From a virus, in the IMG/VR virus record IMGVR_UViG_3300042884_001120, positions 90,361 through 154,360 of that record: a stretch of 64,000 nt of DNA; one strand, 5' to 3'. The notes under the pieces are model-generated. The model searched no databases. It was not told where the DNA came from and saw nothing but the letters and a program-made list of their open reading frames with translations. The position numbers and the translations under genes are program-made. The stretch's first letter is position 1. Every line of letters begins with the position of its first letter. Below are positions 33,808 through 53,161 of the stretch, one piece after another.

Positions 33808-33981
33808 CTAAAGCCCTGAAGATCAACGACTTACGACGCCGGGCCCCGCCGGGCATACGATGCAAGACAACTGTAAGACAGTGCATATGTCAAGAGAAAA
33901 GATATTGTCATACACAAATAAAAATGTAAAAAAATAAAAGTTTTTGTTGCGTTCTGATCCGTTCTGCCCTATCTTAAAACC

Positions 33982-34191
33982 ATGAAGAACAAGACCGCCC
34001 CTCTAAACTTTGACAACGTGTGCAACATCCGCACTTACCTCGCCCTTTCGATCAAGGGGGAAATCAAGTTACGACGCGAAACTGTGACTTACTGGGGCGC
34101 ATCTAGCGCAATGGCTAAACTGCACAATCAGCGAGTGCGTGACATGGTCAGGGCATACAGGGCCGCGAAAGGAATCGAAATAAAGTTTTGA
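33982..34191 (+). CDS. early hypothetical protein (paralog of 38317..38523)
   Basis: TTGCGT-17-TATCTT-6-ATG; LNFDNVCNIRTYLALSI. Confidence 0.75.
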   Translation: MKNKTAPLNFDNVCNIRTYLALSIKGEIKLRRETVTYWGASSAMAKLHNQRVRDMVRAYRAAKGIEIKF

Positions 34192-34222
34192 CACGGCAAT
34201 ACCAAAAGACGATACTATGAAT

Positions 34223-34453
34223 ATGAAAACCGACATCACACACAACACCACCTCCGAACTCATGCTCCGCGCCGTTAACGACCGCGAGCTTTCCACCCTC
34301 GTTGAGAGGAGCTTTGAGGAGTGCGACTTGGGGATCATCAAGCGTCAACTGATGAGGGCCTTTGTTTACACAGGGGCGCAGATGACGGCCTTTGAGCAGG
34401 AATGGGCGTTGTCATACAATGACTGGTATTCGGAACATTGCCCGAACGAATAA
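34223..34453 (+). CDS. early hypothetical protein
   Basis: TTGACA at 34188, ATG 35 nt later. Confidence 0.6.
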   Translation: MKTDITHNTTSELMLRAVNDRELSTLVERSFEECDLGIIKRQLMRAFVYTGAQMTAFEQEWALSYNDWYSEHCPNE

Positions 34454-34457
34454 TCAC

Positions 34458-34589
34458 ATGAACACCGAACGCTTTGTCATACAAGTGAAAGACATCCGCA
34501 AGCGCCAACGCTTTGCGCCCTTGCAGAAGTTAATTGCTTCAAAAAAGCTCTATAAAAGGAGAGCTAAACATCGGGCCGAACGGGATTAA
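34458..34589 (+). CDS. 43-aa basic protein, ArfA-like C-terminal motif
   Basis: RQRFAPLQKLIASKKLYKRRAKHR. Confidence 0.5.
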   Translation: MNTERFVIQVKDIRKRQRFAPLQKLIASKKLYKRRAKHRAERD

Positions 34590-34771
34590 CACAAAGCCCT
34601 GATAATCAACGACTTACGAAGCCGGGCCCCGCCGGGCGCGCGTTGTCTTACAATCTCTCACTTGTTATATCATAGTTGCTCAGCCAGTGTCAAGCATTTT
34701 CTGCAAAAAAAATTTAAAAAAACAAAAAAATACCTATTGCTTTTCTCATGGGCGCATGATACATTTTAATC

Positions 34772-34990
34772 ATGAAAACGAAACTAGCACTAAACGGAAG
34801 GGAAGTTGATTCCCAGTCAATCAACATTGAAGGCGTGAATCGCGCTGACTATCCAGACTTTGCAGATGCCTTCATCGGTGAAGCGGTTTGGATGAACGAT
34901 GGAACAGCCTTGAATGACGAGGAGTTAGAGCAACTCACCGAGGAAAATGGCGAACTGGTAAACCAGTTGGCGCATGAAAACTTTTTTTAA
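34772..34990 (+). CDS. acidic early hypothetical protein
   Basis: DYPDFADAFI motif; TTGCTT-17-TACATT-6-ATG. Confidence 0.75.
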   Translation: MKTKLALNGREVDSQSINIEGVNRADYPDFADAFIGEAVWMNDGTALNDEELEQLTEENGELVNQLAHENFF

Positions 34991-35031
34991 TCTCCTGTTG
35001 ACAAAATCGCAAAAACTGAAATAATCAAATC

Positions 35032-35343
35032 ATGAACAACACGAACACCAAGGAAGCAATCAGGGAACAGGCAAAGCAGAAACTCGCCGCGCTTGTGATT
35101 GGCAAGGTCTACTCTCACGAAAACGAAACTTTCGTTTACGAGGGTGACGACCGCGCAACTCTTCGCAACATGTCGGTTTCTAGCGGTGATGTTCCGTTGC
35201 TTCGGCATGACGGAAATCTGGTGAACATGTCTGTCCTCCTTGGTCTCAAGGAGTCTTACATGAGCAGGGAGGAGTTTGATGCGTCTTACAACAACACCTC
35301 TAACGCCATGACTGAATGGTGCCACAAAAACAATCAATACTAA
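35032..35343 (+). CDS. early hypothetical protein
   Basis: 103 aa, TTGACA promoter directly upstream. Confidence 0.7.
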   Translation: MNNTNTKEAIREQAKQKLAALVIGKVYSHENETFVYEGDDRATLRNMSVSSGDVPLLRHDGNLVNMSVLLGLKESYMSREEFDASYNNTSNAMTEWCHKNNQY

Positions 35344-35612
35344 TATAATATAACATGAGCCTACATAGAATCTCACTACATATAAATTGCTTGATTAATA
35401 GGCCAAAAAATTGGCGTTTCTACATGTTAGGTATTCTCAGAGAGCTGTCTCTATAAAGTGTTGAGGATCAGGGACTTACAGTGCCCGGCCCCGCCCGGCC
35501 CGCGTTGTCATACATTCTCGCACCACGTGTTGTCAAGCGTTTTCTCCCATCCGGTCGAAATTTTTTTATAAATAATTATTGCACACAGATCCCTTTGTGG
35601 TATTCTCTAATC

Positions 35613-35750
35613 ATGGAAAACGAAATGAACCCGAAGGAACTAGCAACGGATGATCTCGCCGCCTATGCCGCCGAATATGAGGCATGGATTGACGAGATGG
35701 AAAAACTCGTCGCAGAGCATGGCAACCCTAACGCTTGGAGCTGGAAATAA
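35613..35750 (+). CDS. 45-aa acidic early protein
   Basis: TTGCAC-16-TATTCT-6-ATG; MENEMNPKELATDDL. Confidence 0.6.
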   Translation: MENEMNPKELATDDLAAYAAEYEAWIDEMEKLVAEHGNPNAWSWK

Positions 35751-35786
35751 GTTGACACGATAATAAAAATCCTTTTTAATTACTTT

Positions 35787-36152
35787 ATGAACCCAGACAC
35801 CAACAACGAGGTCGCCGCGACCCCTGCAACTATGACACCGCAAGAAATCAACCGACGAATCGCCATCGCCTGCGGGTGGAAGTTGCTTCCTAATAGCTTT
35901 CCCCCGAATAGCCGTTTATGGGAGCATCCTAGCGGGAAGAGAGCCTATGAGCCTGATGATCTCCCCAACTACCACGGCGACCTAAACGCGATGCATGAGG
36001 CGGAAAAGGTACTGTCACGCCAACAGACTGAGTGGTATGTCACAACACTATGCCTTGAGGTACAGCCAGAGCCATCGTTACACAACGCAACAGCCAGCCA
36101 ACGAGCCGAGGCTTTCCTCCGCACAATCGGACAATGGGAGGAGGTAAAATGA
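35787..36152 (+). CDS. phage ABA-sandwich-like protein
   Basis: EINRRIAIACGW...PNYHGDLNAMHEAE...AEAFL pattern. Confidence 0.55.
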   Translation: MNPDTNNEVAATPATMTPQEINRRIAIACGWKLLPNSFPPNSRLWEHPSGKRAYEPDDLPNYHGDLNAMHEAEKVLSRQQTEWYVTTLCLEVQPEPSLHNATASQRAEAFLRTIGQWEEVK

Positions 36153-36448
36153 ACCACGAAACCGACACACCGCGAACGGATACCGCTATCTGGAGGCTAA
36201 CTAAATTTGATTCCGCCCTACTTGAGCACGAAGGGGAGACTCTAAATGAGATTCACTGCGCCTCACATGATGAGGCCGAATGTCTCGTTGATCTCCTAAA
36301 CGAGAAGGAACGCGAACTCGCCGCATCCGAGGCCGAGGTTGAGAGGCTCCGTGAGGATAACCAAAAGCTACGCGCCCGCCTCAATTATGTTCAGGGGTGC
36401 GAATGCGACAACTACCTTCATCCCTACTGCAACAAACTAACAAAATGA
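36149..36448 (+). CDS. hypothetical protein (TDTPRTD...ERELAA coiled coil)
   Basis: GGAGG SD, ATGA overlap. Confidence 0.65.
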   Translation: MNHETDTPRTDTAIWRLTKFDSALLEHEGETLNEIHCASHDEAECLVDLLNEKERELAASEAEVERLREDNQKLRARLNYVQGCECDNYLHPYCNKLTK

Positions 36449-36714
36449 ACACCAACACCACAAAGCAAATCGGTATCATCGCAATCGTCGCCCTCTCCTT
36501 TGGACTGGTTGACTCACTAGCAACCTCTCTTTACTGGCGGCATCTCGCCATTAAGCACGGCGCGGCATTCTATGAAACAAATAGCTGGGGCATTCCTAGC
36601 TTCAAATGGAATGATGTCTCGTTCGCACAAGCTCCGTTTCAAGACGGCACTTACTATTCAAAGAAAATGGAAGAGGCTGAAAGCAAGCGCATCCGTTCCC
36701 TTGGTATCAAATAA
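36445..36714 (+). CDS. membrane-anchored hypothetical protein
   Basis: N-terminal TM; ATGA overlap. Confidence 0.6.
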   Translation: MNTNTTKQIGIIAIVALSFGLVDSLATSLYWRHLAIKHGAAFYETNSWGIPSFKWNDVSFAQAPFQDGTYYSKKMEEAESKRIRSLGIK

Positions 36715-36723
36715 GAAAACAAT

Positions 36724-36951
36724 ATGATTAAAAACAATTTTAATAAAATGGATTTTGATCTTATGCTTGATGCCTTTGAAGAGGCAACGGCAAATGTTCC
36801 TCGCCGTGAGATGGTAAAGAAACTTCTGCAAATACAGGTTGAGCGTGATGCGGCAATTACCTTTGGCCTTGCGTTCTGTGAGACTACAGGCAATGTCTCT
36901 GGACTGATTAACGACTTCCGCGCATTCACAAGGGCAATCGGAGAGGCTTGA
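36724..36951 (+). CDS. hypothetical protein
   Basis: 75-aa ORF in operon. Confidence 0.55.
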   Translation: MIKNNFNKMDFDLMLDAFEEATANVPRREMVKKLLQIQVERDAAITFGLAFCETTGNVSGLINDFRAFTRAIGEA

Positions 36952-36982
36952 CACTATAACCAAAAAATATTTTAATAACTAT

Positions 36983-37249
36983 ATGGAAAAAATTACCTAC
37001 CGCATTGAAATGAAAATCTCTGCTCCTCATAAGGGATGGGGGAAATGGAATCTGCTTCATGTGTCCAGAACTGAACGTGCGGCATATAATTGGTTACGCA
37101 AAAATTCAACCAATGAAGATATATGGAAGCATAATAAAGTTTTTCGTATTGAAAAGATTGAGCCTCCATTCTCTATAACCATGCACACACTTTCCAAGAA
37201 AGCGTTGCACGATGCGGTTAACAAGATTGCGCCAATATTGACCACCTAA
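36983..37249 (+). CDS. early hypothetical protein
   Basis: TTGACA at 36948, ATG 35 nt later. Confidence 0.6.
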   Translation: MEKITYRIEMKISAPHKGWGKWNLLHVSRTERAAYNWLRKNSTNEDIWKHNKVFRIEKIEPPFSITMHTLSKKALHDAVNKIAPILTT

Positions 37250-37510
37250 AGGGCTTGACGCACTAACCAAAAAATATATTCATCATAATATGAAAAACAA
37301 GAAAGTCCTTGACACCTCCTCCTAAAGCATATAGAATATACAAATTATGAACATTATAGACATCATTGCAATCAGTTTTCTTATCCCACCTTTTCTTGGC
37401 TTGGCTGTAGTTGTTCTTGATAAACTAGGCTTTTAATAATATGACCAATAGACCCAATTTAACAGAAGAAGAGAAGGAGCACTATAACCAAAAAATACTT
37501 TAATAAGATT

Positions 37511-37729
37511 ATGAAGAAAGAACTATCTGAAAAAATTGTATTACTCATGGGTGCAGTTTGTCTTGGTGGATTAATTGTATTCCTTAACGCTGTTCTGGTA
37601 GCCTTTCTCTGGAACTGGCTAATGCCCGCAATTTTCGGAATCAAGACGATTACCTATCTCCAAGCGATAGGCATTACTTGGCTTGCTCAAATACTTTTTA
37701 AGTCTAGCAATTCAAATAAAAATAGCTAA
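37511..37729 (+). CDS. two-TM membrane protein
   Basis: LWNWLMPAIFGIKTITYLQAIGI. Confidence 0.7.
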   Translation: MKKELSEKIVLLMGAVCLGGLIVFLNAVLVAFLWNWLMPAIFGIKTITYLQAIGITWLAQILFKSSNSNKNS

Positions 37730-37733
37730 TACT

Positions 37734-37907
37734 ATGACTATGACAGACCCCAACCACGACGAAAACGAACCCGAAATCTACAACGATGAGCATGAGCTTG
37801 GTCATACGCCGAGAGACACGGACGAACCACGGGAGCGTGAGCCAGACGATTATCTGGACGCATCCTATGAAGATCGTTTTGATATAGGAGGCGCATATGA
37901 ATTCTAA
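37734..37907 (+). CDS. acidic hypothetical protein
   Basis: 57 aa ending DDYLDASYEDRF. Confidence 0.5.
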   Translation: MTMTDPNHDENEPEIYNDEHELGHTPRDTDEPREREPDDYLDASYEDRFDIGGAYEF

Positions 37908-38148
37908 TCTTGACGAAATTCTTGAGCGATTAGATCCAGATGTTCTAAAAGCAGACGGCTTTGATGATGCGGTAATCGGCGTTGCTTATCGTTGCGGTTC
38001 CGGTGATGTTCTGGCATACGATGCCGAGAAAATAATTCTCAAACTAATGTTGGACGGAATGAGTCGCGAAGAGGCTGAAGAATACTTTGAATTTAACATC
38101 CTTGGCGCATATGTCGGAGAGTATACGCCAGTATTCATAAGTCGCTGA
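37897..38148 (+). CDS. conserved-type phage hypothetical protein
   Basis: ADGFDDAVIG...EEAEEYFEFNILGAYVGEYTP; GGAGG SD. Confidence 0.75.
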   Translation: MNSNLDEILERLDPDVLKADGFDDAVIGVAYRCGSGDVLAYDAEKIILKLMLDGMSREEAEEYFEFNILGAYVGEYTPVFISR

Positions 38149-38316
38149 TAATCAAAGGGTTACAGCGCCCGGCCCCGCCCGGCTAACAATGCAAGACAAT
38201 TGTCATACATCTTATATCATAGTGCGCGAATCTTGTCAAGCCTTTTCGCAAAAAAAAGTTTCGCCTAGCCGCATTTTTTTCTGGGTTTTTTTGTGAGCCC
38301 GTAGTATTCTTTAATC

Positions 38317-38523
38317 ATGAAAAAGAAAGCATCCCTCAACTTCAACAATGTCTGCAACATTCGCACCTTCCTCGCGATTTCAATTCAGAACGAAATCAAG
38401 AGCCGTCGCGAAGCGGTGAAATACTGGGGCGCGACTAGCGGACTGGTGAAGCTACAGAACAACCGCATCCGCGACATGATCGGCGCATACAGGGCATCAC
38501 AAAGCATCGAAATCGTCTCTTGA
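38317..38523 (+). CDS. early hypothetical protein (paralog of 33982..34191)
   Basis: LNFNNVCNIRTFLAISI; TATTCT-6-ATG. Confidence 0.75.
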   Translation: MKKKASLNFNNVCNIRTFLAISIQNEIKSRREAVKYWGATSGLVKLQNNRIRDMIGAYRASQSIEIVS

Positions 38524-38594
38524 CACCACGCACAAAAATTGTAAAAATAGAATCACACTAAACCAACACAACACAAACCCCAAAAAAAACAACA

Positions 38595-38864
38595 ATGAAA
38601 ACTGCAACCCGTATCAGCCTCATGTTCACCAAAATCGCTTACAAGCTCGGCCTTGCCAAGTCTTACAAGATTGTCTATGCCGCAGAGAAGAATGGTTTCG
38701 AGCCTCGCGAGTATATGATCTCGCGCCCGTTCGGTAAGTTCTTCTACAAGGAGGACACCAAGGACAAACCCGCTGGCGAGGGAATCACCTGCTATGTCCC
38801 TGCTGTGGATGACATCCGTAGGTTCCGCTTGGATCGTATCGTTAGGTTTGAACTGATCGCCTAG
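38595..38864 (+). CDS. WYL/Sm-like small protein
   Basis: C-terminal IRRFRLDRIV resembles the WYL-domain signature. Confidence 0.5.
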   Translation: MKTATRISLMFTKIAYKLGLAKSYKIVYAAEKNGFEPREYMISRPFGKFFYKEDTKDKPAGEGITCYVPAVDDIRRFRLDRIVRFELIA

Positions 38865-39003
38865 AAGGTTTTGCTCGACTAGGGGACAAAGGGCTTCATG
38901 CCCTGTTTCCAAACTCCAATGACAATCAAGAAATTGGTTGCAATCTGTAAATATATGGAGCTAGGAACTACCCTAGTCGGGCTTCCATCATAACAAAATA
39001 AAA

Positions 39004-39429
39004 ATGCAATTAAAAACAAATGCAACAGACGGAGGCCGCTCTAGTTCTGGAATCGAAGAGAAAGGAGATTGCACAATCCGAGCTTTGGCGATTAGTGCAG
39101 GCATCCCATACAAATTTGCGCACAAGATCGGAGCGGAAGCAGGGCGCAAGAATAAAAAAGGATTTAGTCCCGAAAAACTTTTGAAGTATGCTAAACGAGA
39201 GTATGGCATAACATATAAGAAAAAGCATTACAAAAGCGTCACGATTGGGAGGTTCATTAAAGAGAACCCAACTGGTCGCTACTATGTCGCAACTAATGTT
39301 CACGCTTTTGCTATCATAAACGGAACAATTTACGACACGGGATTAAATCGTCCACTTCAGCGTCTAGAAGAGGCTTACTTAATATCTAATCATCGCCTAA
39401 CATACCTCCGAGAGACGCAATCTTTCTAA
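39004..39429 (+). CDS. hypothetical protein with C...H...D triad (papain-like?)
   Basis: GDCTIRALA...HAFAIINGTIYDT. Confidence 0.6.
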   Translation: MQLKTNATDGGRSSSGIEEKGDCTIRALAISAGIPYKFAHKIGAEAGRKNKKGFSPEKLLKYAKREYGITYKKKHYKSVTIGRFIKENPTGRYYVATNVHAFAIINGTIYDTGLNRPLQRLEEAYLISNHRLTYLRETQSF

Positions 39430-39662
39430 GTCGCTGATCTTCAACTACTTACAACGCCGGGCCCCGCCGGGCGAGTTGTCTTACAATGTCGAAGCCGCAT
39501 AAACACAGGCTCTAGAAGCAGGGCATGGGCTGGGGATTGAATAGCCCACGGAGCCGCATAAACACAGGCTCTGCAGGCTGTCAACAAGTTTCGCACAAAA
39601 AAAGTTTCAGAAAAAGTGAAAAAGGTTTTGCAATCCGTCGCGCCTGATCGTAGTCTTTACCT

Positions 39663-40169
39663 ATGACAACCAACACAACGCAAAACCCACACTCAACTCT
39701 TCACGCCTTCGCTAACGAGATGATTTCATGTTATGGAAACGGCTTGGCACTTGGCCTTTCTGGAACCAAGGCACAGATCGAACGCTCTTTCAATCGTTTT
39801 TTCAATCTCGGAATTGCAGGGGCAAATGTCACAAGCAACATAGACGAGGAGGGAGGATGGGCAAGCAAGGGGGAAACGCTGGGAGATGGTTTCCTGCACT
39901 ACATCGGCGAGAGATTCGCCTACTTCCTGACAACTGAAGCCGACATCGTGCGCGGTCTTACATGGGAAAACATTAGGCTTTGGCAAGATTCTCCAATCTC
40001 CGCGCAATACAAGGGCAACGCCGAAAAGTTCAAAGCGGATGCACTACAAGCGGCAACGGATACTTTCAAGGCACTACCAAGGGAAAACTTCATGGGCTGG
40101 TCAACTGATCGTATGCCAGAGGGCCACCTAATCCGCGAGGGTCAAAGTGACTGGTGTGATAATGAATAA
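39663..40169 (+). CDS. early hypothetical protein
   Basis: 168 aa; TTGCAA-17-TAGTCT-6-ATG. Confidence 0.7.
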   Translation: MTTNTTQNPHSTLHAFANEMISCYGNGLALGLSGTKAQIERSFNRFFNLGIAGANVTSNIDEEGGWASKGETLGDGFLHYIGERFAYFLTTEADIVRGLTWENIRLWQDSPISAQYKGNAEKFKADALQAATDTFKALPRENFMGWSTDRMPEGHLIREGQSDWCDNE

Positions 40170-40221
40170 AATTGTAAAAAATATCTTTACTGAAAAACGA
40201 AACTCTGCCAACATACAAACC

Positions 40222-40902
40222 ATGAAACTCCTATCACCAAACAACACGAAAATCAAAAAGGGCGAAAAACTCGGTTGGCTTACGCTTGGCCTGTCCCTGT
40301 CACCTTACAATCTTTCCGGCAAAAACTTTTGTTCTCATGCTTCGGCAGGATGCGCGGCGGCTTGCCTCAACACTTCGGGCATGGGTGTTTTTTCTAATGT
40401 GCAAGCGGCACGACTGAAAAAGTCGCGTTACTTCATCGAACAAAAGGAAACTTTCCTTGGACAACTGAACAAGGAAATCCGTTCGGCAATTAAAACCTCA
40501 AAGCGGAAGGGCATGAAGCTCGCGGTGCGTCTCAATGTGCTTTCTGATCTTCCATGGGAAAATCTGATCGACATGAAAGAGTTCCAAGATGTCACCTTTT
40601 ACGACTACACGCCGAACCCTAAACGCATGATCGCACACTTACGCGGTGAGTTGCCGAAAAATTATCACCTTACCTTTTCAAGAAAGGAAAATAATCAGGC
40701 AATGGTTGAATTGATTGCAAGCATGGGCGGAAACATCGCGGCGGTGTTTGCTGGTTCACTCCCTGAAACCTACCTTGGAAAAAAGGTTGTGAACGGCGAC
40801 GACACCGATCTCCGCTTTCTGGATGATAAGGGTGTGATCGTCGGCCTAGTCGCCAAGGGCAAGGGCAAGAAAGACGCTTCGGGCTTTGTCCTTCAGCCCT
40901 AA
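40222..40902 (+). CDS. GP88-family protein (Cys-cluster)
   Basis: CSHASAGCAAACL, RLNVLSD, FYDYT, NYHLTFS, GDDTDLRFLD. Confidence 0.7.
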   Translation: MKLLSPNNTKIKKGEKLGWLTLGLSLSPYNLSGKNFCSHASAGCAAACLNTSGMGVFSNVQAARLKKSRYFIEQKETFLGQLNKEIRSAIKTSKRKGMKLAVRLNVLSDLPWENLIDMKEFQDVTFYDYTPNPKRMIAHLRGELPKNYHLTFSRKENNQAMVELIASMGGNIAAVFAGSLPETYLGKKVVNGDDTDLRFLDDKGVIVGLVAKGKGKKDASGFVLQP

Positions 40903-41268
40903 CCGGATGTCATACAATGGAACTTTTACTAATATGCTTTTTAGTGGCCACAATAATTCACATAAATCTAAACAGATAAAAAAGGAGAAGGAAATGCGCT
41001 AATATAACATCGCCAGAACCGGATCGCCGTAAGTTGCTGAATATCAACGACTTGCGGCGCCGGGCCCCGCCGGGCCGGTTGTCATACAATGTCGAAGCCG
41101 CATAGATACAGGCTGTAGGGATGGGGTACCGGCTGCGGATCAAATAGCCAGCCGAGCCGCATAAACACAGGCTCTATAGCTGTCAACAGAAATCGTGAAA
41201 ATGAAATCGCACAAAATTGTAAAAAAGGTATTGTGCCGCACCGAAAAAAGTAGGATGATTAGATCCTA

Positions 41269-42075
41269 ATGAAAGCACTAAACCTCACACTACACTGCGG
41301 CGGTCACGAAGTCTCCACGGAGCAGGTCGCAAACTCCATCACCCCCAACGCCACCGAGTCGTGGCATCCAATCCCGCACTCTCGCATTATCGAGGGACTG
41401 CGCGAGACGGTCGCAACCGCTGGCCTTGAAATCGTGCAGGAGCGTCATGCTCTCGCTCGTGACGGTCAACGCTACTTCGGCCTTTTCCAAGTGTCGGGCA
41501 TTCCTAACTTTTCCCTAGCGGAAACCGTGGGGACTGTTATCGGCTTGCGTAACTCTCACGACAAGTCATTCCCTGCTGGCATCAACGCTGGTTCCGCGCC
41601 TTTCGTGTGCGACAACCTCGCGTTTCACAACGAAATCAAGATCGCTCGTCGTCATACAAAGTTCATCTTGCGTGACCTTCCCATGCTTCTTGCTGGAGCG
41701 TTCGGCAAGCTCACCTCTGCATGGGGCAACCACGCGAAGCGTGTGGAGGCTTACCAGTCCTGCACTATCAACGACAAGGACGCTCACGATACCATCGTCA
41801 AGGCGTATCGTTGCGGCGCGGTCTCCAAGACTGCCCTTGCGGACGTGGTCGCACAATGGCACGAACCCGAACACGCGGTGTGGGGTTCCGAGCGCAATCT
41901 GTGGGGTCTTCACAACGCCTTCACCAATGTCCTGCGAGGTAACGCAATGGCCTTGCCTCGTCGCTCGGATGCGCTTCACGCCTTGCTCGACCCTCTTGCA
42001 GGGATCGCGGCCCAACAGGTCGTGGAGGCTCAGGACTTGCCGCCAGCACCTCTCGAACTCGCGCCGATCGTCTAA
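41269..42075 (+). CDS. DUF932-family protein
   Basis: IGLRNSHDKS...FVCDNLAF...RRHT; LWGLHNAFT. Confidence 0.7.
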   Translation: MKALNLTLHCGGHEVSTEQVANSITPNATESWHPIPHSRIIEGLRETVATAGLEIVQERHALARDGQRYFGLFQVSGIPNFSLAETVGTVIGLRNSHDKSFPAGINAGSAPFVCDNLAFHNEIKIARRHTKFILRDLPMLLAGAFGKLTSAWGNHAKRVEAYQSCTINDKDAHDTIVKAYRCGAVSKTALADVVAQWHEPEHAVWGSERNLWGLHNAFTNVLRGNAMALPRRSDALHALLDPLAGIAAQQVVEAQDLPPAPLELAPIV

Positions 42076-42267
42076 CATCGGCACTAACATCGCGGGGGTG
42101 GCGATCGCCACCTCCGCAAAGGGTTGAGGATCAACGGTTTGCGCAGCCGGACCCCGCCGGGCATTCTATCGTAAGACAAGCGGTATGTCAAGCTTTTTTT
42201 ATAAATTAATTTTTATTCTTTGAAGATTTTTATTGTGGTTTTTGTAATATGGCGATATACTAATAGT

Positions 42268-42462
42268 ATGAAAATAAGCTATATGAATCTTGACAGAATA
42301 ATTGGCAATTGCACTGAAGAAGATGTAGTAGATAACATCTTCGGTAGTGTATCAGAATTCGCACGTCAGGTAGAAGAGAATGGAGACGAATTTCTATATC
42401 AAAACGACATCGTTGTCAAATATGATGAAGACAACGACGTTCATTACTTCTATCAACTCTAA
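42268..42462 (+). CDS. acidic early protein
   Basis: TTGTGG-17-TATACT-6-ATG. Confidence 0.65.
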   Translation: MKISYMNLDRIIGNCTEEDVVDNIFGSVSEFARQVEENGDEFLYQNDIVVKYDEDNDVHYFYQL

Positions 42463-42917: not shown

Positions 42918-43205
42918 CGCCGCAAGCGCCTGTCTTACAAGGCAGGCCGGGCGGGGCCGGGTGCTGTAAGTCTCTGATACTGAACAACTTAACTGGGCTT
43001 GACAAGCTATCCAAGTTGTGTTATACTTATATAAGTGAGAAACTAATAAATCCCACAAATTAGTTATATAGTTTTTGGGTTAGTTTTTCAGATATGAGGG
43101 ATGGGTATAAGTGCATCGGAAACTATTTAAGGGGATATCGCTCGTAAATCTCGCCCCTATTTGAAATAAACGGCATTCGTAAATTGGATTTTTTTGAAAA
43201 AGTGT

Positions 43206-44323: not shown

Positions 44324-44646
44324 TTGACACGGCAGTAATCTTATTATAATATAAAAGTCATGAGAGACCCCATCACACTACTGATTAACCTACTTGGTTA
44401 CGAGAAGCGCAAGCCATCACTGCTACTCATGCATATGATAGAGTTTACGCACTCTAATTGGCGGCAGGACTTGTTCGCGCAGAATCGTATTAGTGATTAC
44501 GAGTATAAATTATATAGTTAATTGTTGATAATCAATGGGTTACGTGGACCAAGGGGGCCCGGCGCTGTAAGTTGCTGATAACCAATGAGTTATTAAATTG
44601 TAAAATTGTTCTTGTGCTAGTAGGCAAGAAGGTCTAGTATAGGTGA

Positions 44647-45271: not shown

Positions 45272-46030
45272 ATGCAACTCGACTTCATCGGAAACTCAAT
45301 CTCAACTACTAATACTAATGCAATCGAACAATCAAGATTCTGGGATAATGATTTTAATCGGATCACTATTAACCGCCCTCGCCTTGATACTACGAAAGTA
45401 GATAAGTTTTTTAATTCAATTTTAGACGAGGAGATCGCCGAGTATTCAAAATACTGGGATAGTGTCACGCCTCGCAACGCTTCCGAAGTTTTTCAGCGTT
45501 GGTTGTTCGCATTCATGAGCGTCCATACATCATGGCGTTCAAACATTAACGGATACCTAATGATCCGTAACTGGTGGGAGTGGATGAACAAGCCAGAGGA
45601 GCTTGAGCGTAGGATCGTAGAGAGTGGTGCTGGCCTCCATAAAAACCGCACAAAATTCATTACAGCTTTTGCTGAACACTATTGGGCTAATATTGATTTC
45701 TACAAGAAAGCAGAGGACGAGTCATGGGTAGAGTTTCGTGATCGTCTGGTAGACCAAGTGCTTGGCCTTGGCATGGCGAAAGTTAGCTTTAGCCTTGAGA
45801 TGGTTTATCCCTCTATTGCCGAGGTGACTTGCATGGACACTCACTTGTTCCAGTTGTTCGGATTGGATCAGACCAAAGACAGCAAGCAGTATCACGCGAT
45901 GGAGCGTCATTGGATTGAAATGTGCAAAATGTGGAATGTTAGCTCGTATGTCGCCCGTTGTATCTGGTGGGACAGAAACCAAGGCTACGGAGACAGCCGA
46001 TATTGGAGCTTTGTTTTAGAGAAGGAGTAG
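45272..46030 (+). CDS. second HhH-GPD DNA glycosylase-like protein
   Basis: VLGLGMAKVSF...TCMDTHLFQ...YHAME. Confidence 0.7.
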   Translation: MQLDFIGNSISTTNTNAIEQSRFWDNDFNRITINRPRLDTTKVDKFFNSILDEEIAEYSKYWDSVTPRNASEVFQRWLFAFMSVHTSWRSNINGYLMIRNWWEWMNKPEELERRIVESGAGLHKNRTKFITAFAEHYWANIDFYKKAEDESWVEFRDRLVDQVLGLGMAKVSFSLEMVYPSIAEVTCMDTHLFQLFGLDQTKDSKQYHAMERHWIEMCKMWNVSSYVARCIWWDRNQGYGDSRYWSFVLEKE

Positions 46031-46136
46031 TCAGCAGGAAGGGGAAAAGCTGTAACTCGTTTGTGGTGAGCGGGTTACAGCGCCCGGCCCCGCCCGGATG
46101 TTATACCTGAATATATACCGGATTATACCAGAAAAA

Positions 46137-46620: not shown

Positions 46621-47142
46621 ATGAAAACGTGTGAGCTATGTCAATCTGAATTCCCAAATTGGATAAAAATAGATGGTAAGAATAAAAATCTAAAAAATAG
46701 AAAGTATTGTTTAGAATGCTCACCTTGGGGCCAGCACAATACCATTAATAGAAAAAAGAGGGAACATACTCATTGTATTATTTGTAATAGTAAATTAAAA
46801 GAAAGTCAATTAAAGTTTTGCTCTAAAGCCTGTAAGGGTGCTAATGCTTACCAGAATAATCCTAATTGGTATCCAGCTCAGAAACAAAGAGGCATAGATA
46901 GAAAAAAAGAATTGGCATTGCTTAAAGGTGGGAAATGTGAATCTTGTGGATACGATAAAAACTTAGCTGCGCTAGAGTTTCATCATAGGGATCCAAAGGA
47001 TAAAGTGTCTGAATTAGATTCTCGTGTTCTTTCTAATAGAAAATGGGATTTTATTTTAGGAGAGGCCGAAAAATGTTTATTGTTATGTTCTAATTGTCAT
47101 CGCGAACATCATTGCGATGATTTTAATAATTGGAAAGAATAG
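46621..47142 (+). CDS. free-standing HNH (homing) endonuclease
   Basis: N-terminal Zn ribbons; CESCGY...LEFHHRDP...KCLLLCSNCHREHH; GTGTAA motif upstream. Confidence 0.85.
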   Translation: MKTCELCQSEFPNWIKIDGKNKNLKNRKYCLECSPWGQHNTINRKKREHTHCIICNSKLKESQLKFCSKACKGANAYQNNPNWYPAQKQRGIDRKKELALLKGGKCESCGYDKNLAALEFHHRDPKDKVSELDSRVLSNRKWDFILGEAEKCLLLCSNCHREHHCDDFNNWKE

Positions 47143-47416
47143 TGCGCCCGGAGGGATTCGAACCCCCAACCAATCAGTTATGCTTTACCACTTCGGTTTT
47201 CACCGCCCTTTCGGTTTGTGGTCTGGACTTTACCTTCATCCTTTAGGATGCCCCCCGTCAAGTCTCTACACCTTCATCTTTCGATGCTTGGCTCGGTATT
47301 AGGATTTTACACCCTTCACCGACTTTGAGGAGTTATCATCCAAGAGTTTCCCCTTGGTGAGCCCAACCTGCTTTCACAGGTTTAGCCGACTGCTCTGACC
47401 ATTGAGCTACAAGCGC
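47143..47416 (-). tRNA. tRNA(CAT), probably Ile2, interrupted by a group I intron
   Basis: 5' exon 47416-47384 (33 nt, ends U33), 3' exon 47182-47143 starts CATAA; spliced product folds as a cloverleaf. Confidence 0.85.
47183..47383 (-). mobile_element. group I intron (IC3-like), 201 nt, ORF-less
   Basis: P CTCAAAGTCGGTGAA, Q AATACCGAGCCAAG, R GTGTAGAGACTTGA, S AAGGTAAAGTCC; U.G at the 5' splice site; terminal G. Confidence 0.9.
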
Positions 47417-47837: not shown

Positions 47838-47932
47838 TGGAAGTGGGTATGGGAATCGAACCCATGCTCGTCCCTCATCTAGGGAACACAGATTATAAGT
47901 CTGTCGGTGCTATCCAATTACACTAACCCACC
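47838..47932 (-). tRNA. tRNA with TAT (Ile) anticodon and long variable arm
   Basis: ACAGA-CTTATAA-TCTGT; TCCCT/AGGGA variable stem; U73; CCA. Confidence 0.8.
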
Positions 47933-49106: not shown

Positions 49107-49311
49107 GACCTTCACTATATGACTAGTTGGGCAGAGTGGCAAGAAGTATTTTTACAATTTGTTCATGTACACGTTTTGGCGTTTTATCGACACGTTCCGA
49201 GAACATGTCTACGGCATCGACATATTCTTTATATGTATAAATGATTGATAATGAACGACTTACGGTGCCGGGCTCCGCCGGGCTGTTGTAACCTATTGAT
49301 ATTGAAGGGTT

Positions 49312-49385
49312 TCGGAGTGACAGGATTCGAACCTGCGACTTCTTGCTCCCAAAGCAAGCGCACTACCAAGCTGTGCTACACTCCG
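49312..49385 (-). tRNA. tRNA-Pro(TGG)
   Basis: CGGAGTG acceptor, loop TTTGGGA. Confidence 0.9.
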
Positions 49386-49453
49386 TGAAATCTTTCAAAA
49401 GAAAATCGCCCCTAGCTTTTACACTAGGGACGACTTCTGTTTCCCCCTACCTC

Positions 49454-50320
49454 TTAAGCCCTCTTCGCAACAAACCTTCCCTTGGAGTCGCGCACATTGT
49501 GAAAGCGATCACCATTAGGCTTGCGTCCGTAGACCTCGCCATCGTAGTCGCTGTATTCCTCTTCGTAACCATCGTCCTCGTCTTCGTCCTCGTAGCCATC
49601 GTAGTAGCCGTTAGGAAGCGGAGCGTCAAACACTCCGACAACCTCATAACGAGAAGTCCTCATCTTCTGGAAGTCGCAGTCGTGAGGAACCGAAACAACA
49701 TCGGCAGGGTCAACCTTAACGATCACAACCTTGCGGTCGCTACCTCCAAAGGTGGTCGCATACTCAAGCGAACCAACATGGAAGCCATAACTGCAACCAA
49801 GATTAGCGTCATCGCAAACCGAGTTACGGGACATCTCAAGAATCTCTCCGACCTTGTTAGAGAACTTGCCCGTGTGATGGTCAGTCCAATCCGAGCGAAC
49901 GCTCTTATAGCCGAGGAAGTAACCATCGGGAGTGATAGGCATATTGCCATGCTCAAGGAACGAATAGAGTTCCGTTACGCTACGCCGACTAGGATTCTGC
50001 ATCAAGCGAGTGAGGAACTTCACAAGGGGAGTAGGAGAGATTCCTTCCTTGATAAAGGCCAAAATCTTGTCCACAATAGTTCCATGCACGACTTCACCAT
50101 TGAAGTAGACATGACCATCTACGACTTCGACACTACCCTCCGACCAATCGGAGACTACGCTTGCGGTGTCGATGAGATCAAGGAGTTCATCTTCGCTGAC
50201 TCCCTGCTTGACTGCCTCGATAACATTTGCCCAATTCTCGTGGGAACTTTGAATCGTGTAAGGAGTTCCGTTGAGGATTGCGGTTAGTGAGTTATCGGTT
50301 AGGATGTATGGGATGTTCAT
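49454..50320 (-). CDS. rIIB: RIIB-like protein
   Basis: PITPDGYFLGYK, CSYGFHVG, VKVDPADVVSVP..KMRTSRYEVV; GGAG SD. Confidence 0.85.
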   Translation of the reverse strand: MNIPYILTDNSLTAILNGTPYTIQSSHENWANVIEAVKQGVSEDELLDLIDTASVVSDWSEGSVEVVDGHVYFNGEVVHGTIVDKILAFIKEGISPTPLVKFLTRLMQNPSRRSVTELYSFLEHGNMPITPDGYFLGYKSVRSDWTDHHTGKFSNKVGEILEMSRNSVCDDANLGCSYGFHVGSLEYATTFGGSDRKVVIVKVDPADVVSVPHDCDFQKMRTSRYEVVGVFDAPLPNGYYDGYEDEDEDDGYEEEYSDYDGEVYGRKPNGDRFHNVRDSKGRFVAKRA

Positions 50321-50538
50321 AACTCCTTCATCATACATTTTCTTGTATAGCCCCACAAGCATTTTTTTCAATAAAAATACAGATAGTCACAAACCACTGG
50401 TTATCAGGCACTTGCAGCGCCGGGCCCCGCCCGGATGTTAGTTACTAAAAATCGTGGCGTTTCTGTCTGGTATTAAAAAGGTTAGGAGCGAGGCCACACC
50501 ACATAGCCTCGCCCCCGTTTCCCTCACCACAACAATCT

Positions 50539-52779
50539 TTATGCGTTCATGTAGTCCGAAAGCACCTTGGCAAAATCTGCACTAAAGCCCCAGCGCATAT
50601 TGCGTTCCTCAATATAGGAGAGGAGAGGAAACTTTTTCTGCAAGGCTTTCGCACGATTCACAACTTCCTCTGCAATCTTAACTGCCTTCTCGTTTTTACC
50701 CGAAGCGTTTCCTGCGGCGATGTCAAGCCTTTCGATCTTACTGGTAAGCATAATGGCAATTTGCTCTTTCGACTTTGAGTTTGCATCGGTGTTGTGAGAA
50801 TTAACACAAGCAAACAGGTCACGAAGAGTTGCACGATCATTGTCGCTCTTGATAAGTGACATCAGCAAGTCTTGATGCTTCTTGTCTTGGAGACGATAGA
50901 AGAAAGAGTCGCGCAACATGGTATTGCCTAAACGATTTGCAAGCAAAAGATCAATGTCGATTTTGTTTGCAGAGATAAAAGCGTCAAACTCTTCTTGCAT
51001 CTTGTCCTCAAGGCGAACCCATCCGCTACCCATCTTTTTCTTGAGTTGTGTGCTAGTAAAGCCAACGATGTTTGCAGGGTCAATGTTCTTGAAAGGCTGA
51101 ACTAGATCAAGAAGTGAACTACCTACCATCTTATCGCCGCCATTTATGACCGCATGGAAATTATTGATCTGGACATAGATTCCGTTGCCGTTCTTCTCAT
51201 CCACAACACAATCCTTCCAAGCGTTACGATTCCTCCAAGAATTAACATTTTTAGGATCAAGAACCAAAGCACCGACACGCTTTGATTTGGAGGTGGTTGT
51301 TCCAACTGCGTTGACGGGAATGTTGATCTGCGAGGCGAAGATAAAATCCTCATCACAGAAACCATTTGCCTCTTTTAGTTCCGCAATCTGTTGTGCGTAG
51401 GTCGCATACTGCTCTGGCTTGAGAGCCTTCAGCACTTCCGCGCCATTGACAACTTCCATACGCTGAATCGTGAACAGATAAATAGTCTCACGATCACCAG
51501 ACTGCGAAGCAAGGTAACGACCATACTTTGCACCAGCGTTGTAATGTCCAAGGTCATTAAAAACTAATTGAATATCATGCCTAGCCCCAAACTCGTTAAG
51601 GTTGGTAGTCTGAACATTGCCGTTCCAATTCTTGCGATAGCGCATGACATGAAAGCGCAAGCTACGATCCGCACTCTTTCGGGTAGTATCGACATTATCA
51701 GAGGTAACAATCTTGCCGTTAAAGGTAATCCTTTTAACGATCTGTCGGATATAATGGAAACCGCTAACAAGGTTATCCATCTCGGACATAAACTTTTTCG
51801 CCGCATACTCGCTCTTTGCGTTTTGCGTGATCTGCTTTTGAATATCAGTAACAAGCGTCTTGATAATCTCTCCTGCCTTGCTCTTGATGTTCGCAATCGT
51901 CCTATCGGTGTATTGCAGACCCTCGCGGCTTGCCGCAACATCCAAGTCACCGATATTAAAATCAATAACGATAGCACTATTGAACAGATAACTAATCTGC
52001 GTATCTGCATCGTTACCAGAAATGAACTTCAATGCACTTCTGTCAATCGGATAGGCGATGTTGCCCATAACTGCCATCGGGCGATGATCTTCACGATTAT
52101 CATAGAAAGCCCAGCCAGCACCTACGGAAATCGGCTTGGCAAAAACCTTATCATATTCACCCTTGTCCATGCCTACAATGTTCGGGCGAACCTTGAAGAA
52201 ACGGAGGTAACGCTTGACAGCACCCGTGAAGTAATTTGCATCCTCACCCTTGACTGGAATAACGATCTCTACACCATTCTCCTCGGTGGTGTCCTGCGTG
52301 GACAAAAGGGCAATCTGCCCGATTCCGCTAGGATCAATAAACGCATTGTAGGAACGAATCTTGCCATCCGTAAAGGAATTGATAACAAAATTGTCACCAT
52401 AGGCGAACGCACTCTTTGAACCTAGTCCAAGTTGACCGATAAATGCGTTGCTCTGGCGTTTCGTGCTTTCACCATAGAAGCAGTAGATTTCTTGAATGTC
52501 CTGCTCTGAAAGGCCACGACCAAAATCCCTGATCTTGAAAACCTTGGACAGCTTGCTAGGCATGGTGATAGTAATAGGGCAATTAGGCTTGCCAGCTTCA
52601 ACATTGGCATCGTAAGCGTTGGCAGAGTATTCGCGCACGACAGCACCGATCTTGTCGGTGTAGAGTTGGTTCCGAAGAACATTGAAGATATGCGCCAGAC
52701 CAGTATCTTTGATGCCGAAGCTAACGGCAGACTTGATTCCAGCAGAGTTGAGCGAGTTGTATGAGGTGTTTTGTATCAT
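50539..52779 (-). CDS. rIIA: RIIA-like protein (N-terminal GHKL ATPase)
   Basis: LYTDK..VREYSANAYDA, IRDFGRG, STKRQSN..IGQLGLGSKSAFAY, SREGLQY. Confidence 0.85.
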   Translation of the reverse strand: MIQNTSYNSLNSAGIKSAVSFGIKDTGLAHIFNVLRNQLYTDKIGAVVREYSANAYDANVEAGKPNCPITITMPSKLSKVFKIRDFGRGLSEQDIQEIYCFYGESTKRQSNAFIGQLGLGSKSAFAYGDNFVINSFTDGKIRSYNAFIDPSGIGQIALLSTQDTTEENGVEIVIPVKGEDANYFTGAVKRYLRFFKVRPNIVGMDKGEYDKVFAKPISVGAGWAFYDNREDHRPMAVMGNIAYPIDRSALKFISGNDADTQISYLFNSAIVIDFNIGDLDVAASREGLQYTDRTIANIKSKAGEIIKTLVTDIQKQITQNAKSEYAAKKFMSEMDNLVSGFHYIRQIVKRITFNGKIVTSDNVDTTRKSADRSLRFHVMRYRKNWNGNVQTTNLNEFGARHDIQLVFNDLGHYNAGAKYGRYLASQSGDRETIYLFTIQRMEVVNGAEVLKALKPEQYATYAQQIAELKEANGFCDEDFIFASQINIPVNAVGTTTSKSKRVGALVLDPKNVNSWRNRNAWKDCVVDEKNGNGIYVQINNFHAVINGGDKMVGSSLLDLVQPFKNIDPANIVGFTSTQLKKKMGSGWVRLEDKMQEEFDAFISANKIDIDLLLANRLGNTMLRDSFFYRLQDKKHQDLLMSLIKSDNDRATLRDLFACVNSHNTDANSKSKEQIAIMLTSKIERLDIAAGNASGKNEKAVKIAEEVVNRAKALQKKFPLLSYIEERNMRWGFSADFAKVLSDYMNA

Positions 52780-53161
52780 GGTGTTTGGTGTTGTGTGAGC
52801 CTTCATAATAGACTTTCTTGATTCCATGCACAAGAACTTTCTGCGGATTTTTACAATTTACCTAAACCCCTCGCCCATAGCAACTTATGACACCGGGCCC
52901 AGCCCGGCTCGCGCAAGTTTTTAATACCCAGTTACTTACAACTATCTGTCTCTTGGGTCATCCACTAATCCCTTATATAATAAGTATAAAGCAAAAATAA
53001 AGATGGTAAATACGAATATTTTTTCCAGTAAGTAGTATATAATGTCGATCATTTATTTATTACAACTAGAATCCTATATTTACAATACTTACCATCATAT
53101 TTTATTATAGCATACAACCGACCTAGGTTTTATTTAGATCGGTGTATTTCGCTATTTCGGA

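Follow-up and report, generated by a model that had tools for sequence, protein, structure and literature searches.

Several types of repeated intergenic sequences can be compared with the element described here. In E. coli, the RIP/RIB elements (BIME-1), located at operon 3' ends, combine an IHF site with GC-rich REP palindromes on both sides. In T4-type phages, PeSL (promoter-early stem-loop) cassettes have been described, whose short and variable stem-loop forms a terminator hairpin and is recognised by structure (Arbiol et al. 2010, PMC2839356; Comeau et al. 2014, PMC4122927). As for the stoperators of Cluster A mycobacteriophages, these 13-14-bp asymmetric sites, oriented with transcription and spread genome-wide in temperate phages, are bound by a monomeric immunity repressor, the bound protein blocking transcription elongation at gene borders (PMC6550527).

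The present analysis concerns a 46-bp element, 13 copies of which separate early genes in an uncultured phage from a lake. The window, i.e. the whole stretch of DNA that was analysed (64,000 nucleotides), covers positions 90,361 to 154,360 of a complete virus record of 154,360 bp (IMGVR_UViG_3300042884_001120). No publication on the element or on its double-palindrome family was found.

Structure and distribution of the element

All 13 copies of the preliminary description were recovered at the positions it gave, far above chance (Table 1): a search of the window for GCCSGGC-NNN-GCCSGGC with at most two mismatches returned 12 matches vs. 0.08 expected from shuffles, and the thirteenth copy possesses a degenerate 23-nt GC spacer with a palindrome on either side. 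An imperfect palindrome of 26-27 bp is located exactly 3 nt ahead of the GC box in all copies, and the second palindrome reported 3' of the GC box in three of them was also observed. Conservation was counted on 70 copies pooled from six genomes, which align without gaps from -29 to +16. Positions A-28, A-27, T-21, A-13, T-7, T-6 and most of the GC box are invariant or nearly so, loop and spacer lengths are constant, and the copies hardly differ from one another over about 40 bp; no U-tract was found on either flank in this alignment.

Table 1. Coordinates of the element copies and neighbouring features in the window
Feature	Position	Strand	GC box at	Remarks
Copy 1	33809..33854	+	33838	Palindrome then GC box GCCGGGCCCCGCCGGGC; upstream ORF stop at 33805-33807
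Copy 2	34592..34637	+	34621	Right arm is an exact IHF-consensus match
Copy 3	35454..35499	+	35483	CC type; site of the cassette insertion of relative G001
Copy 4	38138..38183	+	38167	TGA of the element is the stop codon of ORF 37897-38148
Copy 5	39427..39472	+	39456	Long module follows
Long module	39473..39662	+		TGTCTTACA box first, two hairpin-like repeats (conserved loop GCATAAACACW), reversed TTGACA, A-tract, promoter; leaderless ATG at 39663
Copy 6	41030..41075	+	41059	Metagenome joints at right edge (41077, 41078)
Paralogous long module	41076..41268			Paralogue of 39473..39662
Copy 7	42117..42162	+	42146	GC box abutted by consensus leftward promoter TTGACA-17-TAGAAT, 42191-42163
Copy 8	42946..42991	-	42946	Inverted (GC box with GGG spacer, then palindrome); rightward promoter TTGACA-17-TATACT (42999-43027) starts 6 nt past it
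Copy 9	44517..44594	+		Full form, 78 bp: palindrome, 23-nt GC-rich spacer, palindrome (44567)
Copy 10	46053..46098	+	46082	Flanked by the end of ORF 45272-46030 (+) and by the minus-strand tRNA cluster (its 3' end)
Copy 11	49238..49314	+	49267	Second, weaker palindrome 49288-49314; 3' of minus-strand tRNA-Pro
Copy 12	50390..50435	+	50419	Separates the minus-strand genes rIIA and rIIB
Canonical intrinsic terminator	50484..50516	-		15-bp stem and T-run; directly after rIIA; 48 nt before copy 12
Copy 13	52863..52939	+	52892	Weak left palindrome; second palindrome 52913-52939; upstream of rIIA start 52833

In the whole genome, every GC box and every palindrome with a weight-matrix score of at least 14 are confined to 33.8-52.9 kb of the window; composition-shuffled genomes gave 0-3 palindrome matches even at the laxer score of 10. 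Five close relatives hold 13-15 copies apiece, and seven more distant viral contigs possess the same 27-bp palindrome, paired about a GC-rich spacer of fixed length. This palindrome/GC-rich spacer/palindrome architecture (about 77 bp) was recovered in the 7 related contigs and in 3 window copies. The carriers are a large group of uncultured freshwater phages, where the element occupies the gaps that separate transcription units (early, tRNA and rII). The dyad consensus is kept in lineages whose shared proteins are just 27-72% identical and the terminal palindromes are common to all, whereas the spacers (88-100% G+C, length fixed per lineage) are uniform inside a lineage and differ between lineages. 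In the clade of this phage, the spacer is the fixed GCCSGGC-CCC-GCCSGGC box, and the right-hand palindrome has been lost from most copies, being replaced by TGTCWTACA and TGTCAAG boxes, which yields half elements. The 46-bp motif is the local version, halved in part, of a palindrome-GC-palindrome unit common to many related phages.

Concerning the resemblance to the IHF consensus claimed for the arms, the right arm matches WATCAANNNNTTR exactly in 31 of the 70 copies and with at most one mismatch in 49, a fit that includes the low information at NNNN and the R at -5; the likeness holds at the consensus level only. Genome-wide, matches to this short consensus are at chance level (23 vs. 18.5 expected), and no HU/IHF gene was found in the phage genome. 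Restriction-site avoidance hints that the host may be a Nostocales cyanobacterium, a group not known for IHF.

Position, base pairing and the nature of the site

The element sits directly 3' of stop codons and ahead of the next promoter. Its reported overlap with, or proximity to, the preceding stop codon was confirmed, since 22 of the 26 scorable upstream frames end 18-35 nt ahead of the GC box, and some of these ends are stop codons within the element itself (TAA at -29, TGA at -21). The downstream order given for the 33.8-42.2 kb copies also holds, with TGTCWTACA boxes, reversed TTGACA, A-tract and rightward promoter all present. The spacing between the element and the promoter that follows is modular (about 105, 113, 127-135 and 170-200 nt), and a comparison of these distances revealed no helical phasing, so that a fixed architectural role at promoters is not seen here. 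The constant absolute orientation that had been noted applies to the window and its nearest relative but not to three other relatives, in which the rII/tRNA block is inverted and the elements along with it; as an argument for a DNA-level role, it falls, since it rests on a lineage-specific block inversion. Relative to transcription, both orientations occur and each is conserved, as expected of a symmetric DNA site.

Our preferred, though tentative, interpretation is that the element is a putative protein-docking site on double-stranded DNA, marking the borders of transcription units. The dyad (G)TAAGTnnTTGAnnATCAAnnACTTAC, of 25-27 bp, would be bound by a sequence-specific protein, dimeric or DNA-bending; candidates are a phage early protein and a host nucleoid protein of the IHF/HU kind. 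The geometry would be maintained by the spacer, which is all G+C and fixed in length. Once formed, the complex would mark the borders and insulate them, and it could do so as a roadblock or as an architectural boundary beside promoters; alternatively, it could be a handle for switching early genes off.

Sequence and length of the element are conserved, but base pairing is not. No covariation was found at the variable pairs of the palindrome arms in the 70-copy set, Watson-Crick pairs amounting to 21, 26 and 21 vs. 24.8, 26.8 and 30.4 expected from independent columns. In the GC box, the two central S bases vary together in the manner of direct repeats (GG 25, CC 22, GC 22 and CG 1), which works against pairing, and the folding of the spacer does not differ from that of shuffles (z near 0) in the 23/24-nt lineages and in the GG and CC types of the clade. 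Canonical hairpin-plus-U terminators do exist in this phage, where one follows rIIA, and in relatives they lie 22-45 nt off the palindrome centre. With no covariation, spacers mostly folding like shuffles, no U-tract and separate, adjacent terminators, the element is not simply a terminator, and on this point the preliminary description is supported.

A role at the RNA level is nevertheless conceivable, if unlikely: palindrome and GC box would be two adjacent hairpins at transcript 3' ends, in either direction, acting as a terminator devoid of U-tract, an RNase III/RNase E processing site or a 3'-end stabiliser, and sequence conservation would reflect recognition by an RNA-binding factor. The location between stop codons and promoters fits such a role, as do similar dyads in bacterial genomes, sometimes flanked by an A-run and a T-run or located right behind tRNA/tmRNA genes. 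Three other observations speak for it and, at the same time, against a DNA docking site. Early-block mismatches compatible with wobble pairing give G-U pairs in 82 cases in leftward RNA vs. 29 in rightward RNA, an asymmetry that favours a leftward-RNA hairpin and that a pure DNA site leaves unexplained; the spacers of lineage L050 and of the clade's GC type do form good hairpins (z -1.7 to -2.7); and no other terminator-like structure was found at cassette ends in the early block. The chance level of the IHF matches, the lack of an HU/IHF gene in the phage, the hint of a Nostocales host and the unphased promoter distances also count against the docking site. Reversed TTGACA hexamers aim into the element in about 26 of the 43 early-block copies, a few of them with consensus -10 boxes, which would suit an RNA-level role, but the conserved final T is missing from most leftward -10 boxes. 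Beside the pairing, folding and terminator data above, the invariable loop and spacer lengths and the absence of any matching Rfam family also argue against it.

Cassette exchange at the element

The element is one of the seams at which relatives have swapped gene cassettes. In one relative, a cassette of about 400 bp is inserted at copy 3 between two elements, and its left GC box is chimeric (CG type), the crossover having taken place within the 17-bp GC box. In metagenomes, a joint from 34633 to 33864, present in 3 runs, connects the GC box of copy 2 to the sequence after copy 1; another runs from 41077 to 38248, and replacements start at 41078 and 42163. The earlier view of a real, undescribed intergenic unit bounding gene cassettes is supported. 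That breakpoints fall at the element is true in part: some gene-content breakpoints lie inside the GC box, but many others are at repeated promoters. Since about 40 bp are nearly identical in all copies, these also act as short homologies where cassettes enter, leave or get exchanged; if the element is a docking site, recombination would be a by-product of this common sequence.

Recombination between copies would also be expected of a selfish or neutral repeat with no phage function, MITE- or REP-like or else a regulatory scrap homogenised by gene conversion, spread through the plastic early region. Spacers uniform per lineage with shared terminal palindromes are the pattern expected of copies of lineage-specific master elements, and the RIP/RIB elements of E. 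coli offer a precedent. We consider this origin rather improbable. Pfam models detected neither an HUH (Y1) transposase nor a serine or tyrosine recombinase in the complete genome, target-site duplications were not seen, and between relatives whole cassettes alone differ, with no presence/absence polymorphism of the bare element. Moreover, the dyad is kept at syntenic borders, e.g. rIIA/rIIB, in lineages with 27-50% protein identity, which points to selection.

Even less probable is a dedicated site-specific recombination site, where the dyad or the GC box would be the target of a recombinase that escaped recognition, in an integron-like shuffling. The crossover within the GC box, the metagenome joints at GC boxes, the variable cassette order among relatives and the dyad, which has the size of a recombinase core site, are compatible with it. 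The integron-like system proposed earlier is, however, not supported: the recombinase search was negative, and junctions are broken only mildly more often with an element (48%) than without (34%), i.e. 1.8-fold more likely. Indels relative to the closest relative are mostly at repeated promoter-ATG junctions or in paralogous genes, and 40 bp of shared sequence suffices for ordinary homologous recombination.

Finally, the suggested paired CCSGG restriction or methylation decoys can practically be dismissed: although each GC box carries two CCSGG sites with a central S in 70/70 copies at both positions, the genome shows no depletion of CCSGG (73 observed vs. 60 expected, 48 sites lying outside elements), the GC spacers of related lineages are devoid of it, and the strong avoidance of CCWGG (6 vs. 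106 expected) explains the missing central W more simply.

Comparison with known systems

The element shares with intrinsic bidirectional terminators (hairpin plus U-tract) its site after stop codons, its palindromic make-up and a G+C-rich core, but it differs by the absence of U- or A-tract and of covariation, by its invariant length, and by the canonical terminators that lie separately, some of them adjacent. Like RIP/RIB, it is an extragenic repeat ending transcription units and combining an IHF-consensus sequence with GC-rich quasi-palindromes. The order is reversed, however, with AT-rich dyads enclosing the GC unit. The element does not resemble REP in sequence and belongs to a phage, not to a chromosome, and the phage genome yielded no RAYT-type transposase.

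With the stoperators, the likeness lies in the 13-30 copies of one protein-type site in short intergenic gaps, mostly outside promoters. The element differs in being a putative binding site made of a 25-27-bp dyad and a GC spacer, which is restricted to 20 kb and occurs in both orientations, in a phage with no detected integrase.

As for the PeSL cassettes, the element departs from them by a core of 46-77 bp with fixed length and conserved sequence, by its lack of pairing constraint and U-tract, with terminators beside it, and by its occurrence also where no promoter module is present, in either orientation, and in phages that are not related to T4; genes are leaderless here, whereas PeSL genes are preceded by a Shine-Dalgarno sequence. 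Both are nonetheless composite units that recur between the small early genes of a hyperplastic region, and in each the palindromic part shortly precedes an A/T-rich tract and a sigma-70-type promoter. When close relatives are compared, indels and exchanges occur at or near the unit in both cases. The insertion of a cassette with a unit on each side fits the mini-circle model.

Structure and distribution of the element

According to the preliminary description, the 33.8-52.9 kb stretch of the window holds 13 copies of a two-part repeat about 45 bp long, and the searches bore this out. The GC half (GC box), GCCSGGC-NNN-GCCSGGC with S being G or C, gave 12 matches against 0.08 expected when up to two mismatches were allowed, and the 13th site (see the table below) has a degenerate 23-nt GC stretch flanked by two palindromes. 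Each GC box is preceded, at a gap of exactly 3 nt, by an imperfect palindrome of 26-27 bp, hereafter the dyad. The virus record is complete (154,360 bp, with terminal repeats), the window being its final 64 kb, and a weight-matrix scan of the whole genome restricted the element to one 20-kb stretch (33.8-52.9 kb), which contains every GC box and every palindrome with a score of at least 14; outside it, only two weak palindrome matches were found, with scores of 10.2 and 13.8, composition-shuffled genomes giving 0-3 matches at a score of at least 10. As had also been claimed, a second palindrome lies 3' of the GC part in three copies (44517, 49238 and 52863), which gives a full dyad-spacer-dyad form, the other ten consisting of one dyad and the spacer.

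An exact-pattern scan of viral contigs yielded five relatives, in which the copies number 13-15 (four in the case of a short fragment) and are restricted to about 20 kb of the contig. The 70 copies of the six genomes align without gaps from -29 to +16, with the consensus TAAgTnnYTGAnnATCAAnnACTTAC-rgc-GCCSGGCCCCGCCSGGY. A looser scan combined with a weight matrix added at least seven viral contigs in which the dyad (G)TAAGTnnTTGAnnATCAAnnACTTAC recurs, with 6-16 copies at each locus, and whose proteins shared with the window phage (GP88-like, DUF932, rIIA, rIIB, Ogg-like glycosylase and RuvB-like ATPase) are 27-72% identical; dyad-bearing contigs seem to number over 100 in all. In the seven contigs, the dyads are paired around a spacer of 88-100% G+C in most lineages, lower values (56-85%) being found in L038, parts of L057 and one L054 unit, and spacer length is constant within a lineage: 14-15, 23 (also counted 23/24) and 26 nt. 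In the related contigs the full form is two copies of the dyad TAAGTnnTTGAnnnTCAAnnACTTA and a fixed-length GC-rich spacer, repeated in the early region. Since the 23/24-nt class is a 77-78-bp unit, as in the three full-form window copies, most copies of the window are half units, their right dyad having been replaced.

No publication of the element sequence was found in a literature search: the palindrome string matched a single unrelated primer, and general searches on such elements returned only papers on the promoter-early stem-loop (PeSL) cassettes of T4-type phages. Close cultured relatives were found neither by DNA, among 50,697 phage records, nor by the large terminase and structural genes, the large terminase reaching at best about 22-25% identity to those of Bacillus and Clostridium phages; the genome also has a tape-measure-size ORF of 1929 aa. 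No RNA dataset with this phage is listed among public runs.

As for bacteria, the 25-bp dyad TAAGTnnTTGAnnnTCAAnnACTTA was found at no fewer than 120 places in MAGs and genomes. Among the matches listed, these are mainly MAGs of Bacteroidota, other members of the FCB group and WOR-3, with the dyad located after tRNA or tmRNA genes (at 8-15 nt in several cases), between A- and T-runs or in local repeat families. One WOR-3 and one Hydrothermia MAG carry it within a larger local repeat, and a few matches fall on contigs resembling mis-binned phages. No Rfam family covering the dyad was found for the bacterial loci. These matches may reflect either a shared binding protein or convergent AT-rich hairpins, and no host evidence was taken from them.

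Features of the window and of the complete genome (window positions unless stated)
Feature	Position	Strand	Remark
13th element site	44517-44594
ATGs of probably leaderless genes (examples)	33982, 34772, 35613, 38317, 39663, 44647
Paralogous 68-69-aa early genes	33982-34191 and 38317-38523		recombine in natural populations; joint 34187/38520
Long gap module	39473-39640, 41076-41245		about 160 nt, between boundary element and next promoter
HNH endonuclease gene	46621-47142	+	adjoins the group I intron-like match
Group I intron-like match	47202-47414	-	within tRNA cluster; 38 bits, under the gathering score of 50
tRNA-Ile(tat)	47838-47932		unusually long (95 nt); near the group I intron-like match
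Clustered DNA-repair-type genes	55423-56427, 57904-58815; 44647-45222 and 45272-46030	-, -; +	RuvB-like AAA+ ATPase (kept in distant relatives), UvdE UV endonuclease, two tandem Ogg/HhH glycosylase-like paralogues (one absent from the closest relative)
tRNA-Ser, anticodon ACT (ARAGORN)	57770-57860	-	unusual; may be miscalled or a modified-decoding tRNA
Genome ends	1-340 and 154233-154360 of the complete genome		terminal repeat short; initial 30 bases repeated at offsets 0, 84 and 252 and near the right end, so that the ends carry 84-bp-period repeats

Gene setting and orientation

The copies at 33.8-42.2 kb sit within a block of small plus-strand genes (the early block), and the later ones amid minus-strand tRNA genes and rIIA/rIIB (the rII block). 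The upstream frame ends 18-35 nt before the GC box in 22 of 26 scorable cases, the stop codon of the preceding gene abutting or overlapping the element and being, in some cases, the element's own TAA or TGA. Orientation had been thought constant across the strand switch, which would have argued for a DNA-level role; this did not hold, as the rII/tRNA block is inverted along with its elements in three other close relatives (G002-G004). Conservation was seen with respect to the local genes, the palindrome preceding the GC part in the early block and following it in the rII block. The use of both arrangements is compatible with an essentially symmetric unit.

Early-block copies are followed by one or two TGTCWTACA boxes and then, in this order, by a reversed TTGACA, an A-tract, the promoter and the ATG. 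This succession of palindromic unit, A-tract and promoter was found in the 43 early-block copies, with 60-190 nt of other boxes intervening, the remaining 27 copies having no such promoter module. No helical phasing between the element and the next promoter was seen. The long gap module, which is present in many gaps of L020, L022 and L024 as well as in the window, contains two repeats about 59 nt apart, each a short stem around a conserved 11-nt loop, GCATAAACACW, for which no Rfam match was found.

In the early block, a distance of 6 nt separates the -10 hexamer from the ATG, with no Shine-Dalgarno sequence, so that the early genes are probably leaderless. At least 11 of the 25 early genes (window 32671-44647) have TAnnnT or TTTAAT precisely at positions -12 to -7 relative to the ATG, about 0.75 cases being expected by chance for TAnnnT, and the genes with a -10-like hexamer have a -35 element 17 nt upstream. 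Late genes are also without Shine-Dalgarno sequences. Concerning the reversed TTGACA that faces the element, a perfect hexamer was found in about 26 of the 43 early-block copies, with -10 partners that mostly miss the final T and score little above shuffles. Leftward promoters of small-RNA genes, which these hexamers may represent, were considered and not adopted.

Double-stranded site or folded nucleic acid

Several tests point to a double-stranded site rather than to a folded nucleic acid. No covariation was found at the variable positions of the palindrome arms in the 70 copies, the Watson-Crick pairs observed vs. those expected from independent columns being 34/36.3, 21/24.8, 26/26.8 and 21/30.4. 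The central S bases of the GC box (GG in 25 copies, CC in 22, GC in 22 and CG in one) are alike far more often than complementary; that they are never A or T has a simple explanation, the genome strongly avoiding CCWGG (6 observed vs. 106 expected). The spacers of the 23/24-nt lineages and the GG and CC boxes of the window clade show no more folding than composition-matched shuffles, good hairpin spacers being confined to lineage L050 and to the GC type of the window clade.

The length of the element is invariant in the 70 copies, and no U- or A-run adjoins it, positions +17 to +29 and -30 to -45 being nearly information-free. An intrinsic terminator, in which a G+C-rich hairpin is directly followed by a U-tract, was rejected because the element has no U-tract, and a terminator scan detected a single copy, weakly. 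Ordinary hairpin-plus-U terminators are in use elsewhere in the phage and occur separately beside elements, at 22-45 nt from the dyad centre in five elements of L060, two of L054 and two of L076 and, in the window, directly after rIIA, adjoining copy 50390. The element is therefore distinct from a terminator.

These results stand against the unlikely alternative of an RNA 3'-end element, to which two other observations lend some weight: the reversed TTGACA hexamers that face the element, although most of their -10 partners are defective, and the would-be G-U mismatches, of which the early block has 82 in the leftward vs. 29 in the rightward RNA, the other block having 38 and 42, respectively. 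We cannot account for the early-block asymmetry, and the RNA reading was kept for this reason. An Rfam search of 30-58 kb returned tRNAs, the weak group I intron match and nothing else.

Judged from its sequence, the core of the element, a rigid and conserved dyad plus GC spacer, has the properties of a DNA site on which a protein docks and not those of a terminator, and its conservation points to a specific protein-DNA interaction. A candidate protein would dock on the double-stranded dyad and GC spacer; which protein binds, and what the complex does, we propose tentatively, as a reading that falls a little short of an even chance. The right arm matches the IHF consensus WATCAANNNNTTR exactly in 31 of the 70 copies and with at most one mismatch in 49 (the left arm, exactly in six), has low information at the N positions of the consensus and accepts only A or G at its R position. 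This resemblance is real, but the consensus is short; its matches genome-wide are at chance level (23 vs. 18.5 expected), and no HU/IHF gene was found in the complete phage genome with Pfam. Besides CCWGG, the genome strongly avoids GGWCC (25 observed vs. 106 expected), CYCGRG (13/41), GCCGGC (0/11), GCATGC (2/16), GAGCTC (1/10) and GTGCAC (2/10), a set of depleted palindromes that we take to resemble Nostoc/Anabaena restriction systems. This possible host clue is only a hint; a host of that type would not favour IHF.

Exchange of cassettes and comparison with known systems

Over 27 kb, the window and its closest relative, G001 (about 95% identity), differ by about 17 indels or replacements, two located at elements and most of the others at repeated promoter-ATG junctions. 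Twelve elements correspond one to one, the sole difference being one inserted cassette of about 400 bp, with its additional element: in G001 two elements flank this cassette, the window having a single element at that point. On the left of the cassette, the GC box is the only CG type among the 70 and unites the resident CC box with the GG box preceding the same cassette in G004, which places the crossover somewhere in the 9 bp that separate the two S positions; on the right, the junction is likewise at a GC box. This clean crossover inside the 17-bp box is a concrete example of cassette movement. Other lake metagenomes contain contigs in which GC box 34621 is joined to what follows GC box 33838 (three runs) and 41077 to 38248, as well as replacements that start from the right-hand edges of boxes 41059 and 42146; further joints lie within paralogous genes and within promoters. 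As for the two 68-69-aa paralogues, the intervening 4.3 kb are missing from contigs of three lake metagenomes.

In five genomes, 48% of the adjacencies with an element are broken vs. 34% of those without (odds ratio 1.8), the p-value being only indicative because the genome pairs are non-independent and the ORF families crude. The expectation that breakpoints between relatives fall at the element is thus supported by the chimeric GC box and the metagenome joints, but not by most indels, and the enrichment is modest. The element is one of several kinds of short repeats where cassettes recombine.

A selfish or neutral repeat seems improbable, given the one-to-one correspondence with G001, in which only a whole cassette differs, and the lack of a Y1 transposase. 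Less probable still is a dedicated site-specific recombination site, of the integron-like kind suggested by the preliminary description: the crossover within the GC box and the joints at GC boxes would agree with it, but no serine recombinase, tyrosine recombinase or Y1 transposase was detected in the complete 154-kb genome (Pfam PF00239, PF00589 and PF01797), indels lie mostly at promoter-ATG junctions, the odds ratio is low and the element is one among several recombining repeats. Paired CCSGG restriction or methylation decoys, also suggested earlier, can be dismissed, as no depletion of CCSGG was found in the genome.

Beyond the docking site itself, the dyad-GC-dyad could conceivably, as a long shot, be the DNA half of a nucleoprotein boundary system that a large group of uncultured phages from aquatic habitats shares and that would correspond, in lytic phages, to stoperators: a candidate protein would insulate or silence early units, and the same complex, in place of plain homology, would direct the exchange of promoter-gene cassettes. 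If so, the early region would be an integron-like array of accessory genes without any known recombinase. Early regions of large phages house most of their uncharacterised anti-host genes, and the organisation, timing and exchange of early genes are poorly understood beyond T4. A rigid intergenic element, distinct from terminators and promoters and conserved across lineages with only 27-50% protein identity, offers a landmark to delimit early cassettes and their exchange in metagenomic phage genomes.

Among known systems, integron attC sites have a conserved fold with variable sequence and length and are expected to have a cognate recombinase, whereas the element has a fixed sequence and length, its pairing is not maintained and no such enzyme was detected. 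It differs from REP/BIME or MITE repeats in the absence of empty sites at otherwise identical loci between the window and G001 and, again, of a Y1 transposase. Like stoperators, at which a bound phage protein blocks elongation, it has many intergenic copies of one site; a comparable protein and block would be hypothetical here. In PeSL units, the stem-loop directly adjoins the A/T-rich tract and a sigma-70-type early promoter on their 5' side, a Shine-Dalgarno sequence and the start codon come next, and the stem-loop is a terminator hairpin defined by its structure. The early-block copies resemble this order in part, with other boxes in between and genes that are probably leaderless, and the element shows no covariation, no U-tract and, for most types, no folding beyond that of shuffles. 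Also, PeSLs belong to T4-type myoviruses, and the window phage has no close cultured relatives by terminase or structural genes. The two systems share indels or exchanges at the units between close relatives, here with modest enrichment; cassette recombination at short repeated units has been proposed for PeSLs (PMC2839356, PMC4122927). The element is most aptly regarded as a variant of the promoter/stem-loop cassettes that form boundaries in T4-type phages.
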